Notes: generated by a model from the letters alone, not told the origin. DNA of 64,000 nt from Patescibacteria group bacterium (GCA_041665505.1 JBAYIR010000006.1:1707-65706), one strand, 5' to 3'; positions 8,168 to 42,282 are shown, numbered from the stretch's first letter. Numbers and translations are program-made.

Positions 8168-8196
8168 TTGACATTTTGTGATAAATATTGTATATT
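8168..8196 (+). promoter_or_regulatory. consensus sigma70-type promoter (TTGACA-17-TATATT) for the GC-rich operon 8288-9772
   Basis: Exact -35 and near-consensus -10 boxes with a 17-nt spacer. An SD 'AAGGGAAGGAG' lies before the ATG at 8288. Confidence 0.5.
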
Positions 8197-8287: not shown

Positions 8288-8830
8288 ATGTTTCGTTACT
8301 TGCAGAGCGGCAAGGCTTTGGTCGCGATGTTTGTGACGAGCGTGATTGTGATGATCACCTCGTCTTTCGTCCTGATCAACGCCGGCCCGGAGAACTCTCG
8401 GGTGGATTTTTTGACCATGGAAGGTCACGATTTGTTGAGCCTGCCGTCGGTCAAGCTGGCCTATGACTTCGCGCTGGCCGACAGCGTGCTCACCGAGAAC
8501 ATCGAGTTTCTCGAGCGGCAAGGGCTCGATCAGGGCCAGGTAGCTTTCTATGGCGACCTGTCCAAGTACTATCAGGAGCTTTGCGGGCTCCGCCAGCAGG
8601 TCCAGACTTTGGCTCTGGAGTACCCTGATTCGCTCAGTGGTAACCACAGAGCCAACGAGGAGCTCAAGCAGGTGGCCAAGCCTGTCATGGCTGCGGTCAT
8701 CAATTTCAGATCGTCTTGGCTGCTGGCTCACGCCATGCAGCATGGACTCAAGTTCTGGAGCATGGCTTTCGGGCTGTCGCTTCTCTTCTTCATCTACGGC
8801 CTGATCTGCTGGAAGCAAGGCCGCTTCTAG
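8288..8830 (+). CDS. hypothetical bitopic membrane protein (N- and C-terminal TM helices, ~130 aa soluble middle), GC-rich
   Basis: 180 aa with a strong RBS. GC-rich codon usage is consistent along the frame. The antisense and off-frame ORFs here are artefacts of the GC-rich DNA. Confidence 0.55.
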   Translation: MFRYLQSGKALVAMFVTSVIVMITSSFVLINAGPENSRVDFLTMEGHDLLSLPSVKLAYDFALADSVLTENIEFLERQGLDQGQVAFYGDLSKYYQELCGLRQQVQTLALEYPDSLSGNHRANEELKQVAKPVMAAVINFRSSWLLAHAMQHGLKFWSMAFGLSLLFFIYGLICWKQGRF

Positions 8831-8845
8831 CTCAAAGGAGCACAC

Positions 8846-9772
8846 ATGTTCATCGACAGTCCGACCTACAGCCGAAGCAAATCGCCACACTACAGGTTTT
8901 GGCGCTGGACATACCAGAACAGTCTCTGGAACCGGTCGGTGCCAAATTCCTACCAGACCTCACTCTGCCTGTACTGGCAGCGGATGTTCTGGGTGGGGGT
9001 GCTGATCTTGCCGGTGTTGCACCTCCTGTACTTCGCCACCGCTGCTGTGGTCTACGAGCTGCTCTATAAGAGAGTGGTCAGGCCCGTGGTTAAGTTTGAT
9101 TTCCTGGCCGCCGTGGTCATCTGGCTGATGATTATGGGCATGGTGATCTGCGGGGAGGTGGAAGTACTTTTGTTCTACCTGGTGGTAGTGTGTAGTTGCG
9201 GCATCGTCGGCTTGCTTGCCATTGTTTTCTTCTGCATCTACGCCAAGAGAGCCGTGGAGTGGTTGCTCAAGAGGGTCATCGGACCTTTTCTCTGGGAGCC
9301 ATTCATTTGGCTCTGTGATTTCAACTGGCAGGTTTATCGACGGTACTACAACCGTCGACATCCTCTGCCGGACGAGGAGTGCACGATCAAGGGTTACAAC
9401 CAGCTCATGGTTCACAGCCTGTTCTGGCTGCAATCTGTTGTGGTGGCTCTGGCCTTGCACTTCGGTAGTGGTCAGGCTCATCCCGAGCTCTGGGGCTTGG
9501 CCTTGAGCTGGATCATCTGGTACGGGCTGGCCTTGCTGCTGGTTAGCTTGGTCATCAACCTGCTCATCAACCGGCACTACGACAAGCTGGACAAGGAGCG
9601 GTACTACGAGCTTTACCCGGAAAAGCGGCCGGGCAAGAAGCTGAAGATCAAGAGGGTGAAATCTAAGCCCTATCGCGAGCCTTCGCGGTGGGCGCACTGG
9701 AGGTACGACTTCAACCAGTGGCGTAAAGCCACCAAGGAGAAGGTCTGCCCTCTGGTGAAGTTCGTGGACTGA
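8846..9772 (+). CDS. hypothetical polytopic membrane protein (~6 TM) with a basic C-terminal tail, GC-rich
   Basis: 308 aa, tightly coupled to the upstream gene by a 15-nt gap. Hydrophobic helices alternate with short loops. Confidence 0.55.
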   Translation: MFIDSPTYSRSKSPHYRFWRWTYQNSLWNRSVPNSYQTSLCLYWQRMFWVGVLILPVLHLLYFATAAVVYELLYKRVVRPVVKFDFLAAVVIWLMIMGMVICGEVEVLLFYLVVVCSCGIVGLLAIVFFCIYAKRAVEWLLKRVIGPFLWEPFIWLCDFNWQVYRRYYNRRHPLPDEECTIKGYNQLMVHSLFWLQSVVVALALHFGSGQAHPELWGLALSWIIWYGLALLLVSLVINLLINRHYDKLDKERYYELYPEKRPGKKLKIKRVKSKPYREPSRWAHWRYDFNQWRKATKEKVCPLVKFVD

Positions 9773-9790: not shown

Positions 9791-9828
9791 GAAGGAGGGG
9801 TGCTAATGACCCCTCCTTCTTCTTTTTG
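9791..9828 (+). terminator. rho-independent terminator (GAAGGAGGGG/CCCCTCCTTC + T-tract), copy 2 of the shared module
   Basis: Perfect 10-bp stem with a 9-nt loop followed by TTCTTTTTG. The 5' context 'AGACGACTGC' is identical to that at 5838-5847. Confidence 0.65.
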
Positions 9829-9866
9829 CTTAAAATAAAAATTTAATTAATTTTGGGCTTTTAATA

Positions 9867-9895
9867 TTGACAATATTGTTGTTATATGATATAAT
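9867..9895 (+). promoter_or_regulatory. consensus sigma70 promoter (TTGACA-17-TATAAT) for 9963-11582
   Basis: Perfect consensus hexamers with a 17-nt spacer, sitting in an AT-rich intergenic island inside the GC-rich region. Confidence 0.5.
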
Positions 9896-9903
9896 ATTTT
9901 GTT

Positions 9904-9933
9904 AACCAAAATGACCAATTCTGGTCTTTGGTT
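9904..9933 (+). ncRNA. 5'-leader RNA hairpin motif, copy 1 (AACCAAA-AU-GACCA-AUUC-UGGUC-UUUGGUU)
   Basis: Nested inverted repeat between the promoter and the RBS of 9963. It is homologous to the element at 10591-10622. Confidence 0.4.
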
Positions 9934-9962
9934 GGTACACTCACAGCTTTTTTAAGGAGGCC

Positions 9963-10586
9963 ATGATGGTTAGACTGTTGTTCTGGTTCCAAGTCGTCAT
10001 GGCTTGGATTTATATGGTGCCTCAGGTGGTGCAAATCACCAGAGGTAAAACTAACGGGTTGACCCTAGCGATGTGGGCGATTATGATGGGCTATCTTTTG
10101 GTCAGTCTCTCGTTGGCACTGCTTGCTTGGCGAGAGAAAAAAGAAAAGATTCGCCTGTATACCGTTATTGTCTTCGCACAGTGGGCTGTGTTTGTCTTGG
10201 TGTTGTTTGTTATGAGCATCAAGTCAGTTCACTGGTCTGCTGGTGACACCGTAGTCTGCCTGGCAGTCAGCATCCTTTCAATCATCACGGTAATGCGAAA
10301 TGGTCTGAAAGACCCCATGACCCGTGCTTGGTTGTCTGTTTGGTGTAAGGGTGTTCCACAACTTTGGGCGGCTTATGTAATGATGACTGCCCACAGCACA
10401 GAATGGCTACATCCACTCGCACTTTTTGCAAGCAACGCAACTTCGATTCCCAGGCTCGTTCAAGTCTATCTGCAAGGTAGGCGAGGTGGCTGGGACAGAG
10501 CGACTAAGGGCCTGTTTCTTGGTGAGACCGCCAATGTCGCCACTTGGACAGTGGTAACTATTGTGTGGTTTGTCCTAAGATTCTAG
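9963..10586 (+). CDS. PQ-loop-repeat-like membrane protein (SemiSWEET/LAB_N-like), GC-rich
   Basis: 207 aa with about 6-7 TM helices. Carries 'MVPQVVQITRGKTNGLTL', which resembles the PQ-loop signature (PQ...K/R.T..LS). SD 'AAGGAGG' before the ATG. Confidence 0.45.
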   Translation: MMVRLLFWFQVVMAWIYMVPQVVQITRGKTNGLTLAMWAIMMGYLLVSLSLALLAWREKKEKIRLYTVIVFAQWAVFVLVLFVMSIKSVHWSAGDTVVCLAVSILSIITVMRNGLKDPMTRAWLSVWCKGVPQLWAAYVMMTAHSTEWLHPLALFASNATSIPRLVQVYLQGRRGGWDRATKGLFLGETANVATWTVVTIVWFVLRF

Positions 10587-10590
10587 ACCT

Positions 10591-10622
10591 AAACCAAAAT
10601 GGTCAATTCCGACCACTGGTTT
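10591..10622 (+). ncRNA. RNA hairpin motif, copy 2 (AAACCA-AAAU-GGUC-AAUUCC-GACC-AC-UGGUUU)
   Basis: Same architecture as 9904-9933. The inner stem is changed GACCA/UGGUC to GGUC/GACC, a compensatory substitution. Confidence 0.4.
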
Positions 10623-10647
10623 GTCCTTAGAAAGGGGTGTCTCGAAG

Positions 10648-11067
10648 ATGAGAGAGAAACTGTTGGTTACGTCGCTGATGATGCTCGTCATGGTCAGCTT
10701 CACTGGTTGCAAACGGACTGTTGTTCAGCAGTCTGGCGAGCTGACCGAGTCGGCAGTGGTCGACGAGGTGATTTTCAGCCCATCATCGCACGGCTCTTCG
10801 GTCGGACCGACCATGTCAGGCGATGGTGGCATCGGCATCGCGGTGACTTCGGTCAGTATACCGGAGAAGTACGCAGTCGTGTTCCGTTGCCAGCACGGCA
10901 AGTTCGTCGTCCAGGGTACCAGCCAGAAATACAAGGAGCTCTGGGAGCGCTTGATCCGTGGCCAGGCCGTCACTGTTTACTACAAGGAAACCTACCGTGT
11001 CGTGTACGAAGGAGAAGAGCTCCTTTCCCGCGAGCTCATTGGTTACGATTTCCTCACCGCTAGGTAG
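10648..11067 (+). CDS. putative lipoprotein, GC-rich
   Basis: Begins 'MREKLLVTSLMMLVMVSFTGC', a signal peptide plus lipobox Cys. An RBS 'AAAGGGG' lies upstream. The track ORF from 10621 starts on TTG inside the hairpin. Confidence 0.5.
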   Translation: MREKLLVTSLMMLVMVSFTGCKRTVVQQSGELTESAVVDEVIFSPSSHGSSVGPTMSGDGGIGIAVTSVSIPEKYAVVFRCQHGKFVVQGTSQKYKELWERLIRGQAVTVYYKETYRVVYEGEELLSRELIGYDFLTAR

Positions 11068-11093: not shown

Positions 11094-11582
11094 ATGCTGA
11101 CGAAATACAGTCTGTCGAAGTTCGATCGTGGTAGCGCGGCCTATGTGGTCGCGCATGCTCGTTGGAAGCGGAGTAGGGGTCGTGGGCCTTCCATGTCCTA
11201 CCTCACCGAACGCAACCCGGTGAAAGCACTGGTCAACGCTCAGACTTTCCTCGTGGCGTTCGGTCGTCGACAGGAGCTGGAGGAAATGCTTCAGTATCTT
11301 CCGCTCACGACGCCCAAACAGGCTGCGGCGATGGACAAGCAGACGATCGAGCTCCACATTCGCCGCATCGCCATCGAGTGCAAGTCTGAGACTGAGCTTG
11401 CTCAGCGTTTGACCGATGAGCTCGGCTTCAGTGGTGCTCTCATCAACTGGTACGAACCGACCGACCAAACCGGCGTCGAGGCGCGAGATCTCGTTCGTGC
11501 CTTCGGTGGTCTCATCTCCAAAAACGGGGCCATGGTCAGTGTGATGATCTACACTCTGAGTGATGATGTGATCATCGTGTGA
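11094..11582 (+). CDS. hypothetical cytoplasmic protein, GC-rich
   Basis: ATG at 11094 follows SD 'CAGGAGGAA'. About 162 aa with no TM helices. It is translationally coupled to the lipoprotein gene. Confidence 0.5.
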   Translation: MLTKYSLSKFDRGSAAYVVAHARWKRSRGRGPSMSYLTERNPVKALVNAQTFLVAFGRRQELEEMLQYLPLTTPKQAAAMDKQTIELHIRRIAIECKSETELAQRLTDELGFSGALINWYEPTDQTGVEARDLVRAFGGLISKNGAMVSVMIYTLSDDVIIV

Positions 11583-11641
11583 TTCTGGCGGTCGCGCCAG
11601 AACAAGAGGTCAAGGCTTTCTCCTCAGAGAGAAGCTATCGA

Positions 11642-11680
11642 GGGCCGCTGACGTAAGTCGGCGGCCCTTTCATTTTGTTT
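11642..11680 (+). terminator. rho-independent terminator (GGGCCGC...GCGGCCC + T-rich)
   Basis: 7-bp GC stem with an 11-nt loop followed by TTTCATTTTGTTT. Confidence 0.5.
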
Positions 11681-11807: not shown

Positions 11808-11996
11808 CTAGACGCTAGCAGAGCTAGCTTTCTTTTTGGCCTCTTTGTCGGCCCGGACTTCTTCTCGGTCGACAGGCACGTCATCGGGAGCTTCAATGCC
11901 GACCTGCACTTGGTCGCCTCTGATGTCGGCGATAATGATGACAATGTTGTCACCAATGTATATTTTTTCGTCTTTTTTTCTGGACAGGACCAACAT
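11808..11996 (-). CDS. csrA: carbon storage regulator CsrA (RNA-binding global regulator)
   Basis: 62 aa beginning 'MLVLSRKKDEKIYIGDNIVIIIADIRGDQVQVGIEAPDDVPVDREEV'. This closely follows the CsrA consensus (MLILTRR.GE...IGD...V.VL...G..V.IGI.AP..V.V.REE). The coding DNA is GC-rich. Confidence 0.65.
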   Translation of the reverse strand: MLVLSRKKDEKIYIGDNIVIIIADIRGDQVQVGIEAPDDVPVDREEVRADKEAKKKASSASV

Positions 11997-12065
11997 GGCT
12001 TCCTCCCTGAACTTGAGTCTTCCTTGAATCTAGCCTTGAGGCTAGGGCGAAATGAACCGGGGATT

Positions 12066-12094
12066 ATTATAGATTTTTTGGATGTTTTTGTCAA
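12066..12094 (-). promoter_or_regulatory. consensus sigma70 promoter (TTGACA-17-TATAAT) for csrA with a GGA-rich leader
   Basis: Minus-strand -35 at 12094-12089 and -10 at 12071-12066. The leader contains a CTAGCC-UCAA-GGCTAG hairpin and several GGA motifs before the SD. Confidence 0.45.
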
Positions 12095-41954: not shown

Positions 41955-42029
41955 GCTCCTATAGTTCAACGGATAGAACAGCGGCCTTCTAAGCCGTAGA
42001 TGTAGGTTCGATTCCTACTGGGAGCACCA
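41955..42029 (+). tRNA. tRNA-Arg: tRNA-Arg (anticodon TCT), CCA encoded
   Basis: Cloverleaf folds by eye. 7-bp acceptor GCTCCTA/TGGGAGC, D-stem GTTC/GAAC, anticodon stem GCGGC/GCCGT with loop CTTCTAA, T-arm GTAGG-TTCGATT-CCTAC, discriminator A. A TTGACT-17-TATACT promoter lies upstream. Confidence 0.8.
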
Positions 42030-42082
42030 CTCGATTCACTTTGTTCGCTCGTGGTCTTCGACCATTTGATTATGTAATAAAA

Positions 42083-42157
42083 TTATTTATATGGTGCCTA
42101 TGGTGTAGAGGTAACACAGCAGGTTGTGGTCCTGTTATCGAGAGTTCGATTCTCTCT
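42083..42157 (+). tRNA. tRNA-His: tRNA-His (anticodon GTG) with genomically encoded G-1 and CCA
   Basis: G-1 pairs with discriminator C73. Acceptor GTGCCTA/TAGGCAC, D-stem GTGT/ACAC, anticodon loop TTGTGGT, T-arm GAGAG-TTCGATT-CTCTC. Confidence 0.8.
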
Positions 42158-42282
42158 AGGCACCCCATAAGAGCTTCTCGCGTAAGCGAGGAGTTTTTGT
42201 ATTGTTTAAGTAGCAATAATGTAAAATATACCTTACGTAAAGTAAATTTGACATTATGTTTCTAATACTATATCATAAAACT

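Follow-up and report, generated by a model that had tools for sequence, protein, structure and literature searches.

A covarying stem-loop in the leader and between the cistrons of a Patescibacteria operon encoding a PQ-loop protein

Why would a bacterial operon carry nearly the same small hairpin twice, once ahead of its first gene and once behind it? The question is raised by a 64,000-nucleotide stretch of DNA from a Patescibacteria group bacterium (GCA_041665505.1, JBAYIR010000006.1:1707-65706; hereafter the window), in which one stem-loop (copy 1, 9904-9933) lies between the promoter and the Shine-Dalgarno (SD) sequence of a gene for a protein of 207 amino acids (aa), and a related one (copy 2, 10591-10622) lies between the stop codon of that gene and the ribosome-binding site (RBS) of a lipoprotein gene. 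Both belong to a stretch of 51% G+C (~8.2-12.1 kb), below called the island, in a window that is otherwise poor in G+C (~33% across its length). A first, sequence-only reading of this DNA had reported two such hairpins on either side of the 207-aa gene and had taken them for copies of a functional RNA element; the coordinates agree with that placement, and comparison with homologous loci indicates that the hairpin structure is real and under selection.

Structure and covariation of the two hairpins

The element measures about 32 nt and consists of an outer helix (P1) of 6-7 bp, a bulge of 2-3 nt on the 5' side, an inner helix (P2) of 4-5 bp and a loop that contains AAUUC. In copy 1, which we call type A, P1 pairs 9904-9910 with 9927-9933 and can be extended by optional U.G pairs between 9902-9903 and 9934-9935; the bulge AU (9911-9912) is followed by P2 (9913-9917/9922-9926) and the loop AUUC (9918-9921). 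In copy 2, of type B, P1 is formed by 10591-10596/10617-10622 and P2 by 10600-10604/10611-10615, enclosing the loop AAUUCC (10605-10610). The 16-base pattern AACCAAAATGNNCAATTC has exact matches in the window at these two hairpins only, and a covariance model of the element scores 55.5 bits at copy 1 and 48.1 bits at copy 2, with the next best match in the window at 14.7 bits.

Folding against shuffled controls, a check proposed together with the original claim, favours both hairpins. The proposed structure is found at -13.5 kcal/mol in a 41-nt segment around copy 1 (z -2.7) and at -13.3 kcal/mol in the corresponding 41-nt segment around copy 2 (z -3.3), and only 2 and 1 of 200 dinucleotide shuffles, respectively, are as stable. 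The compensatory differences that had been described for the inner stem are present, two of its pairs being altered on both sides between the copies (A-U to G-C and C-G to U-A). The claim that the outer stem is conserved in both copies holds in part: the stems are partly the same, but copy 2 pairs AAACCA with UGGUUU, one pair further outward than copy 1, and the two innermost outer-stem pairs of copy 1 correspond to A.C and A.A in copy 2, whose inner stem gains a U-A pair.

The two copies occupy distinct positions in the predicted transcript. The helix of copy 1 begins at 9902-9904, 7 nt past the end of the promoter (the -10 hexamer ends at 9895), at the transcription start expected from that promoter (~9902, range 9901-9903), leaving 0 unpaired nt at the predicted +1, so that the primary transcript is predicted to be base-paired from its first nucleotides; an 18-nt linker then separates copy 1 from the SD sequence AAGGAGG. 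Copy 2 begins 4 nt past the stop codon and ends 8 nt ahead of the lipoprotein RBS. Because a promoter scan found no internal promoter scoring at least 9/12 ahead of copy 2, we place this copy inside a polycistronic mRNA.

To follow the structure beyond the window we used 73 loci fetched around homologues of the 207-aa and lipoprotein genes. A plain MAFFT alignment analysed with RNAalifold recovered the inner stem only, because insertions and deletions shift the outer stem out of register, and we therefore relied on a hand-made alignment of 16 distinct hairpins with gaps coded as N (A5) and on an alignment made by the covariance model (A7). In the hand-made alignment 84.9% of 212 cells are standard pairs, compared with 71.4 +/- 1.7% when partners are shuffled (0/500 shuffles reach the observed value) and 15-45% when partners are slid against each other; the model-made alignment gives 86% (again 0/500 shuffles as high), both counts being somewhat optimistic since both alignments lean towards the structure. 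Double-sided changes occur in 12 of the 14 pairs, and the four core pairs of the inner stem are standard in all 62 of 62 cells while using up to five pair types per position. The cells that depart from Watson-Crick pairing, read on the strand of the gene, favour G.U over A.C by 26:9 overall and by 10:0 in the four core pairs, which points to an RNA of the sense strand and would not be expected of a DNA palindrome or an antisense transcript. The function that had been proposed from two sequences is thus upheld by 16 distinct homologous hairpins that show the covariation looked for, and these comparisons support a functional RNA structure that acts in cis, within the sense mRNA.

Relatives of the leader hairpin and of the second copy

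The hairpin is confined to a closer clade of homologues of the 207-aa protein (~63-87% aa identity; 15 loci including L073), whose leaders are 53-73 nt long. Among the 14 hairpin-bearing loci that were scored it stands at a constant distance after the -10 element, its fold z-scores lie between -2 and -3.7 in 12, and the transcripts of 10, with starts predicted from the promoter, have 0-3 unpaired nucleotides at the 5' end. Examples are the hairpins of L056 (UUAAUCAAAGUGGCUAAUUCUGGCCCUUGAUUAG), L003 (UUAAUCAAUUUGACUAAUUCUGGUCAUUGGUUAG), L006 (UUCACAUUGGCCAAUUCAGGUCUUUGUGAA) and L047 (UUAACCAUUGGCUGAUUCUGGCUAUGGUUAG). Both helices are fused into one continuous stem of 9-11 bp in L065 and L073, and the outer helix is kept with a different inner hairpin and loop in L007 and L010. 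Across these relatives, the architecture of the hairpin outlasts its sequence. A motif in the linker, C..T.AC-A, is conserved across the clade together with the SD sequence.

Most of these loci consist of a single gene bounded by one hairpin and, at the opposite end, a terminator. A covariance-model search of 230 kb of other loci returned the leader hairpins, a second copy in the related genome L061 and one weak, terminator-like match (L004/L062) only, and csrA and the gene for a 162-aa protein, both neighbours of the hairpins in the island, are absent from most hairpin loci, being present only in the window, L061 and L003. The initial description of the motif as an element of the island is right in that the island holds two copies, but by its distribution the hairpin is specific to one clade of the 207-aa gene family and not to the G+C-rich island.

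What does this gene family encode? The AlphaFold2 model of the 207-aa protein (predicted local distance difference test score, pLDDT, 94) has seven transmembrane (TM) helices, and its best structural matches in Foldseek are cystinosin, SWEET and the KDEL receptor, which share the PQ-loop fold; no Pfam family scores above threshold. The 47 homologues come from metagenome contigs and metagenome-assembled genomes, and the few that are named belong mostly to Patescibacteria or unclassified bacteria. A near-consensus promoter (TTGACA/TTGACT-17-TATAAT, 9-12/12, with TTGACA in most) precedes 41 of 43 distinct upstream regions, often with a TG extension and independently of the type of leader. Either the family is always very strongly expressed, or Patescibacteria promoters are unusually near consensus. 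Across Patescibacteria genomes the gene is richer in G+C than its flanks (47-61%, with G+C at third codon positions up to 0.86, against 35-40%), and its homologues stand in unrelated neighbourhoods, each as a single promoter-to-terminator unit. The varied neighbourhoods and the high G+C content suggest repeated horizontal transfer.

The second copy has relatives of its own. L061 shares the backbone of the window, encodes a 207-aa protein that is 76% identical and carries both hairpins. Its copy 2, AAAGCAAAAUUGGUCAAUUCCGACCACUGCUUU, is identical to that of the window at 35 of 38 positions and differs by a C-G to G-C swap in P1 and one extra bulge nucleotide, which indicates that copy 2 is maintained, as is copy 1. 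Copy 2 resembles copy 1 less than it does the 5' leader hairpin of L005 (AAACCAAAAUGGCUAAUUCCAGCCACUGGUAA), the helices of the latter and of copy 2 differing by two double-sided swaps, and we therefore distinguish two subtypes, type A with the loop AAUUCU and type B with the loop AAUUCC followed by CCACUGGU. Type B serves as the leader hairpin in the lineage of L005 and as the intercistronic hairpin in the window. We reject a recent duplication of copy 1 as the source of copy 2, which is a diverged subtype that forms the 5' leader hairpin in L005. Nor is the hairpin an ancestral feature of the lipoprotein gene, since the stand-alone homologues L068, L070 and L071 have no such hairpin. In L068 the gene is preceded by a consensus promoter of its own and by the RBS segment known from the window, CCUUGAAAGGGGCUGU, so that in the window a module of ~35 nt was placed precisely between the stop codon and the native RBS of the lipoprotein gene. 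By these comparisons the hairpin alone is a portable unit.

The weak match of the covariance model has a setting of its own. In L062 (1598-2260; also in L004), an open reading frame (ORF) of 140 aa with a LAGLIDADG-like motif (LDFIAGLITGNGSF) lies upstream of the 207-aa homologue and is followed by three consecutive hairpins, two of them long GTATAC-centred palindromes around AAAAUGGCUAAUCUUAGCCAUUAUUUUUU. The hairpin AAAAUGGCUAAUCUUAGCCAUUAUUUUUU is similar to the inner part of the motif, yet terminator-like in appearance.

Candidate roles of the hairpin

The roles originally listed for the hairpins (stability hairpin, processing site and protein-binding site) remain the right shortlist, and for copy 1 the data favour stability, given that its helix begins at the predicted +1. 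Our preferred explanation, to which we give a probability of roughly 0.45, is that copy 1 stabilises the mRNA as a 5'-terminal stem-loop and that copy 2 is a barrier between cistrons. By analogy with known leaders, the paired 5' terminus of copy 1 would deny access to decay enzymes that depend on the 5' end (an RppH/RNase E-type pathway or an RNase J 5' exonuclease) and, together with the perfect SD sequence, should yield a long-lived and highly expressed mRNA of the PQ-loop operon. Copy 2 would form an internal barrier between cistrons, which may serve as a 5' cap for the distal cistrons once an endonuclease has cut upstream, or may block 3'-to-5' exonucleases from entering the first cistron. 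Stem-loops at the 5' end, alone or with a strong RBS, stabilise mRNA (Emory 1992; Hambraeus 2002; Sharp and Bechhofer 2005; reviewed in PMC7509114), and a paired terminus with a strong SD sequence is the stabilising arrangement of ompA, aprE and ermC-type leaders (PMC7509114). The constant placement of the hairpin at the predicted +1, the retention of a helix where sequence or register has changed and the lack of a dedicated factor gene co-inherited with the hairpin all speak for a stabiliser.

How close is the resemblance to known stabilising elements? With the leader hairpin hp1 of ompA in Escherichia coli, the aprE leader of Bacillus subtilis and ermC-type leaders, copy 1 shares a hairpin flush with the predicted 5' end, a single-stranded spacer, a strong SD sequence, the lack of a terminator tail and action in cis on the sense strand. 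Its sequence is unrelated to theirs, however, its loop and linker are conserved, which is not required there, and the operon holds a second copy. Copy 2 resembles the intercistronic hairpins of Rhodobacter puf and the malEFG repetitive extragenic palindromic (REP) sequences in being a stable stem-loop that lacks a U-tract and lies between cistrons, right behind a stop codon, but it is a single small hairpin (~-13 kcal/mol) rather than a multi-hairpin block or a member of a dispersed repeat family, and it shares ancestry with a 5' leader hairpin.

Several observations weigh against a stabiliser. The loop (A)AUUC is 96% conserved, compared with 69-83% for the stems and ~50% for the flanks, and from the hairpin through the linker to the SD sequence the leaders of the window and L061 differ by no more than a 3-nt indel, whereas the two 207-aa genes agree at only 63% of their fourfold-degenerate sites. 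A purely steric barrier needs no fixed loop or linker, and the conserved loop together with the linker motif C..U.AC-A suggests that something may read the sequence. Copy 2 is not at the primary 5' end, and a 5'-cap role there requires a putative cleavage. Moreover, distant homologues of the 207-aa gene manage with short leaders of 23-43 nt that have no significant structure, so that the hairpin is dispensable for the gene as such.

Since the unpaired nucleotides are conserved, we keep as the main rival that the hairpin binds a trans-acting factor with sequence specificity (an RNA-binding protein or small RNA); this factor would recognise the AAUUC loop and the bulge and control the PQ-loop and lipoprotein cistrons jointly, at the level of translation or stability. 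The loop stays nearly constant while the stems vary with compensation, U13 in the bulge does not vary and G14 hardly does, each copy ends 27-30 nt ahead of a start codon, the same module stands ahead of two different genes in one operon, and the leader is conserved between the window and L061 well beyond the neutral sites; all this would fit such a factor, which we nevertheless consider unlikely, since the hairpin is not accompanied by any candidate factor gene (csrA and the 162-aa gene have the narrow distribution given above), the inner stem and loop are replaced in L007 and L010, and the hairpin does not sequester the SD sequence. CsrA in particular, whose gene lies 1.2 kb away in the same G+C-rich island, would suit a leader hairpin near an SD sequence. 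CsrA sites carry GGA in a hairpin loop and, in most cases, another at the SD sequence, but the loops AUUC and AAUUCC contain no such triplet and most loci with the hairpin lack csrA, and we reject a CsrA site. An endoribonuclease processing site, for RNase III or a similar enzyme, that would trim the leader and cut between cistrons is improbable in our view. In the early mRNA of phage T7, RNase III sites lie in the leader (R0.3) and between genes (R0.5 to R1.1), and the present arrangement recalls them both in having similar hairpins in the leader and between genes of one transcript and in the bulge that interrupts the helix. Yet the helix here totals 11-13 bp, about half the length of the T7 sites and shorter than the classical, near-continuous duplex of ~20 bp or more (about two helical turns), whose cleavage leaves 2-nt 3' overhangs; cleavage here is putative, the operon has a hairpin at just one of its two junctions between cistrons (none stands between the lipoprotein gene and the 162-aa gene), and in most homologous loci, which are single-gene units, there is nothing to separate.

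The remaining alternatives have far less in their favour. The transporter fold predicted for the downstream gene product, the conserved unpaired nucleotides of loop, bulge and linker and the strong purifying selection on the leader would be compatible with a very small ligand-sensing riboswitch formed by hairpin and linker, but the structure is a simple hairpin that offers neither junction nor pocket, neither the loop nor the SD sequence was found to take part in a pseudoknot or alternative pairing, no Rfam family matches even at E = 10 and copy 2 has no linker motif, making a riboswitch very improbable. We give hardly any weight to the element working as double-stranded DNA, whether as a palindromic operator at +1 for a dimeric repressor or as a recombination site flanking a mobile gene: the palindrome does overlap the predicted transcription start, the 207-aa gene occurs in many genomic contexts as a G+C-rich cassette and two copies flank it in the window, but the sense-strand excess of G.U over A.C is contrary to a DNA site, half-sites change freely provided that pairing is kept, the loop lacks symmetry, reading AATTC and never GAATT, the conserved cassette begins at the -35 element, outside the hairpin, most loci have a single hairpin with a terminator at the other end, and a 30-nt hairpin without an attC-like GTTRRRY core is no integron site. 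Least credible of all is a short leader peptide, M[AT]NSG[HL]W..., opened by an NUG within the hairpin and regulating the operon. Positions 12 to 14 read AUG, GUG or UUG in 14 of the 16 hairpins, ORFs of 6-20 codons follow the NUG, and the 3-nt indel between the window and L061 preserves the frame; against this, the NUG has no SD sequence and only ~10 nt between it and the 5' end, the start codon is lost in L011 (AUA) and L067 (GUA), the stop position varies from 6 codons to open-ended, the frame of copy 2 differs between the window and L061, and substitutions compensate for pairing instead of being synonymous.

We also compared the hairpins with known classes of element and rejected each. Neither is an intrinsic terminator, as had been recognised at the outset: the sequence after copy 1 is GGUACAC and that after copy 2 is GUCCUUAG, neither of them a U-tract such as follows the real terminators of the island. 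At gathering thresholds Rfam 15 finds two tRNAs in the window and no other family, and a search of 9860-10680 at E up to 10 returned only a chance snoRNA match of 11 bits; the tRNAs, tRNA-Arg(TCT) and tRNA-His(GTG), are adjacent at 41955-42167. A dispersed repeat, whether REP-like or like a miniature inverted-repeat transposable element, does not fit two copies in 64 kb that recur, across the 230 kb of other loci, with this gene family only, apart from the one weak terminator-like match. Integron attC sites are imperfect palindromes of 57-141 nt with RYYYAAC/GTTRRRY cores, arrayed beside intI, whereas the hairpin measures 30 nt, its 3' ends GTTGGTA and GTTTGTC misfit GTTRRRY, and the cassettes have their own promoters. 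The guanidine-II (mini-ykkC) riboswitch has two adjacent hairpins with ACGR loops 7-40 nt apart; the loops here contain AAUUC, and the copies are separated by 657 nt that include a gene. A phage origin is rejected as well, since viral contigs yielded no protein relatives and no motif matches. The hairpin is not a general design rule of the island cassettes, because the g180 and csrA leaders have no significant 5'-flush hairpin comparable to copy 1, and nothing consistent between the window and L061 was found for sequestration of the SD sequence or a loop pseudoknot.

To judge from these comparisons, the hairpin is an undescribed element of a familiar kind, the mRNA leader and intercistronic stem-loops, tied to a clade of Patescibacteria PQ-loop proteins. 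To our knowledge, almost nothing is known of post-transcriptional control in Patescibacteria (the candidate phyla radiation, CPR), and we know of none that can be grown alone; the element offers a compact, covariation-supported mRNA structure linked to a CPR-specific gene family on a self-contained, G+C-rich cassette of predicted high expression. If the hairpin is a stabiliser, CPR bacteria would share the logic of 5'-end protection with model bacteria, and the element could serve as a small part for expression constructs. It is also conceivable, though in our view unlikely, that a conserved host factor or ligand recognises the hairpin by its bulged U, its hardly varying AAUUC loop and the conserved linker, which would make the hairpin a new class of Patescibacteria cis-regulatory RNA. 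Recognition of this kind would coordinate the 7-TM PQ-loop transporter and, in some lineages, the adjacent lipoprotein, through a portable module that brings another cistron under the same control when placed ahead of it. If a factor does read the loop, the hairpin would offer a way to an unknown regulator and to what the transporter does in the physiology of the cell. The interest is chiefly for specialists in RNA motifs or CPR bacteria, and nothing is overturned; it would grow if the conserved loop proved to be a recognition site.

Genomic setting of the operon

The island consists of three self-contained expression cassettes, each with a sigma-70 promoter matching the consensus at 11-12 of 12 positions, and the scan located an intrinsic terminator at the end of both plus-strand cassettes (Table 1). 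The terminator of the first of these marks the upstream limit of the hairpin-bearing transcription unit. The promoters sit in AT-rich spacers, and the cassettes also have strong SD sequences.

Table 1. Predicted features of the hairpin-bearing operon and its neighbours in the window
Feature	Position	Strand	Details
Cassette g180-g308	promoter 8168-8196, terminator 9791-9819	+	promoter/terminator scan
Intrinsic terminator of the g180-g308 cassette	9791-9819	+	11-bp stem with 7 G-C pairs, then TTCTTTTT
Sigma-70 promoter TTGACA-17-TATAAT	9867-9895	+	12/12 against consensus; TG extension 9887-9888
Hairpin copy 1 (type A), AACCAAAAUGACCAAUUCUGGUCUUUGGUU	9904-9933 (9902-9935 with optional U.G pairs)	+	between promoter and SD
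Single-stranded linker GUACACUCACAGCUUUUUU, SD and spacer to start codon	9936-9962	+	SD AAGGAGG 9954-9960; conserved in relatives
First cistron, 207-aa protein gene	9963-10586	+	stop codon UAG 10584-10586
Hairpin copy 2 (type B), AAACCAAAAUGGUCAAUUCCGACCACUGGUUU	10591-10622	+	between 207-aa gene stop and lipoprotein RBS
Second cistron, lipoprotein gene with its RBS	10631-11067	+	RBS AAAGGGG 10631-10637, ATG 10648, signal peptide ending FTGC
Third cistron, 162-aa protein gene	11094-11582	+	no family or PDB match
Intrinsic terminator closing the three-gene operon	11640-11669	+	13-bp stem with 9 G-C pairs, T-rich tail; conserved in L061
csrA homologue	11808-12094	-	62 aa, Pfam CsrA E = 1.5e-21; own 12/12 promoter 12094-12066

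Compared with L061, backbone homology continues up to a TTGACA -35 element, and the window has the g180-g308 cassette in addition, as a promoter-to-promoter insertion; the right edge of the island lies just past the -35 element of csrA, at ~12100. The lipoprotein gene has 20 homologues, of which the L061 version is 87% identical in aa sequence over residues 20-139, and the gene for the 162-aa protein is present in L061, with partial matches in L003 and L014. The island proteins of 180, 308, 139 and 162 aa gave no usable family assignment, and matches are weak only (the 308-aa protein to the membrane protein phrog_944, the 139-aa protein to Cas5b at E 0.037). Those encoded at 8288-9772 (180 and 308 aa) are two membrane proteins, and the 162-aa protein is cytoplasmic; for these three, hardly any family or solved relative could be detected.

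A 154-aa ORF (10599-11063), which the gene caller picked for the identical contig L001, opens at the AUG inside copy 2 and overlaps, in a different frame, the lipoprotein gene. It is probably an alternative-frame artefact of G+C-rich sequence, because L061 and the 20 homologues conserve the lipoprotein frame instead. The csrA gene is conserved in L061 (89% aa identity) and is also found in L003, and its leader carries a CUAGCC/GGCUAG hairpin with GGA motifs (AAGGAAG, and CAGGGAGGAAGCC at the SD sequence), a combination that suggests autoregulation of csrA.

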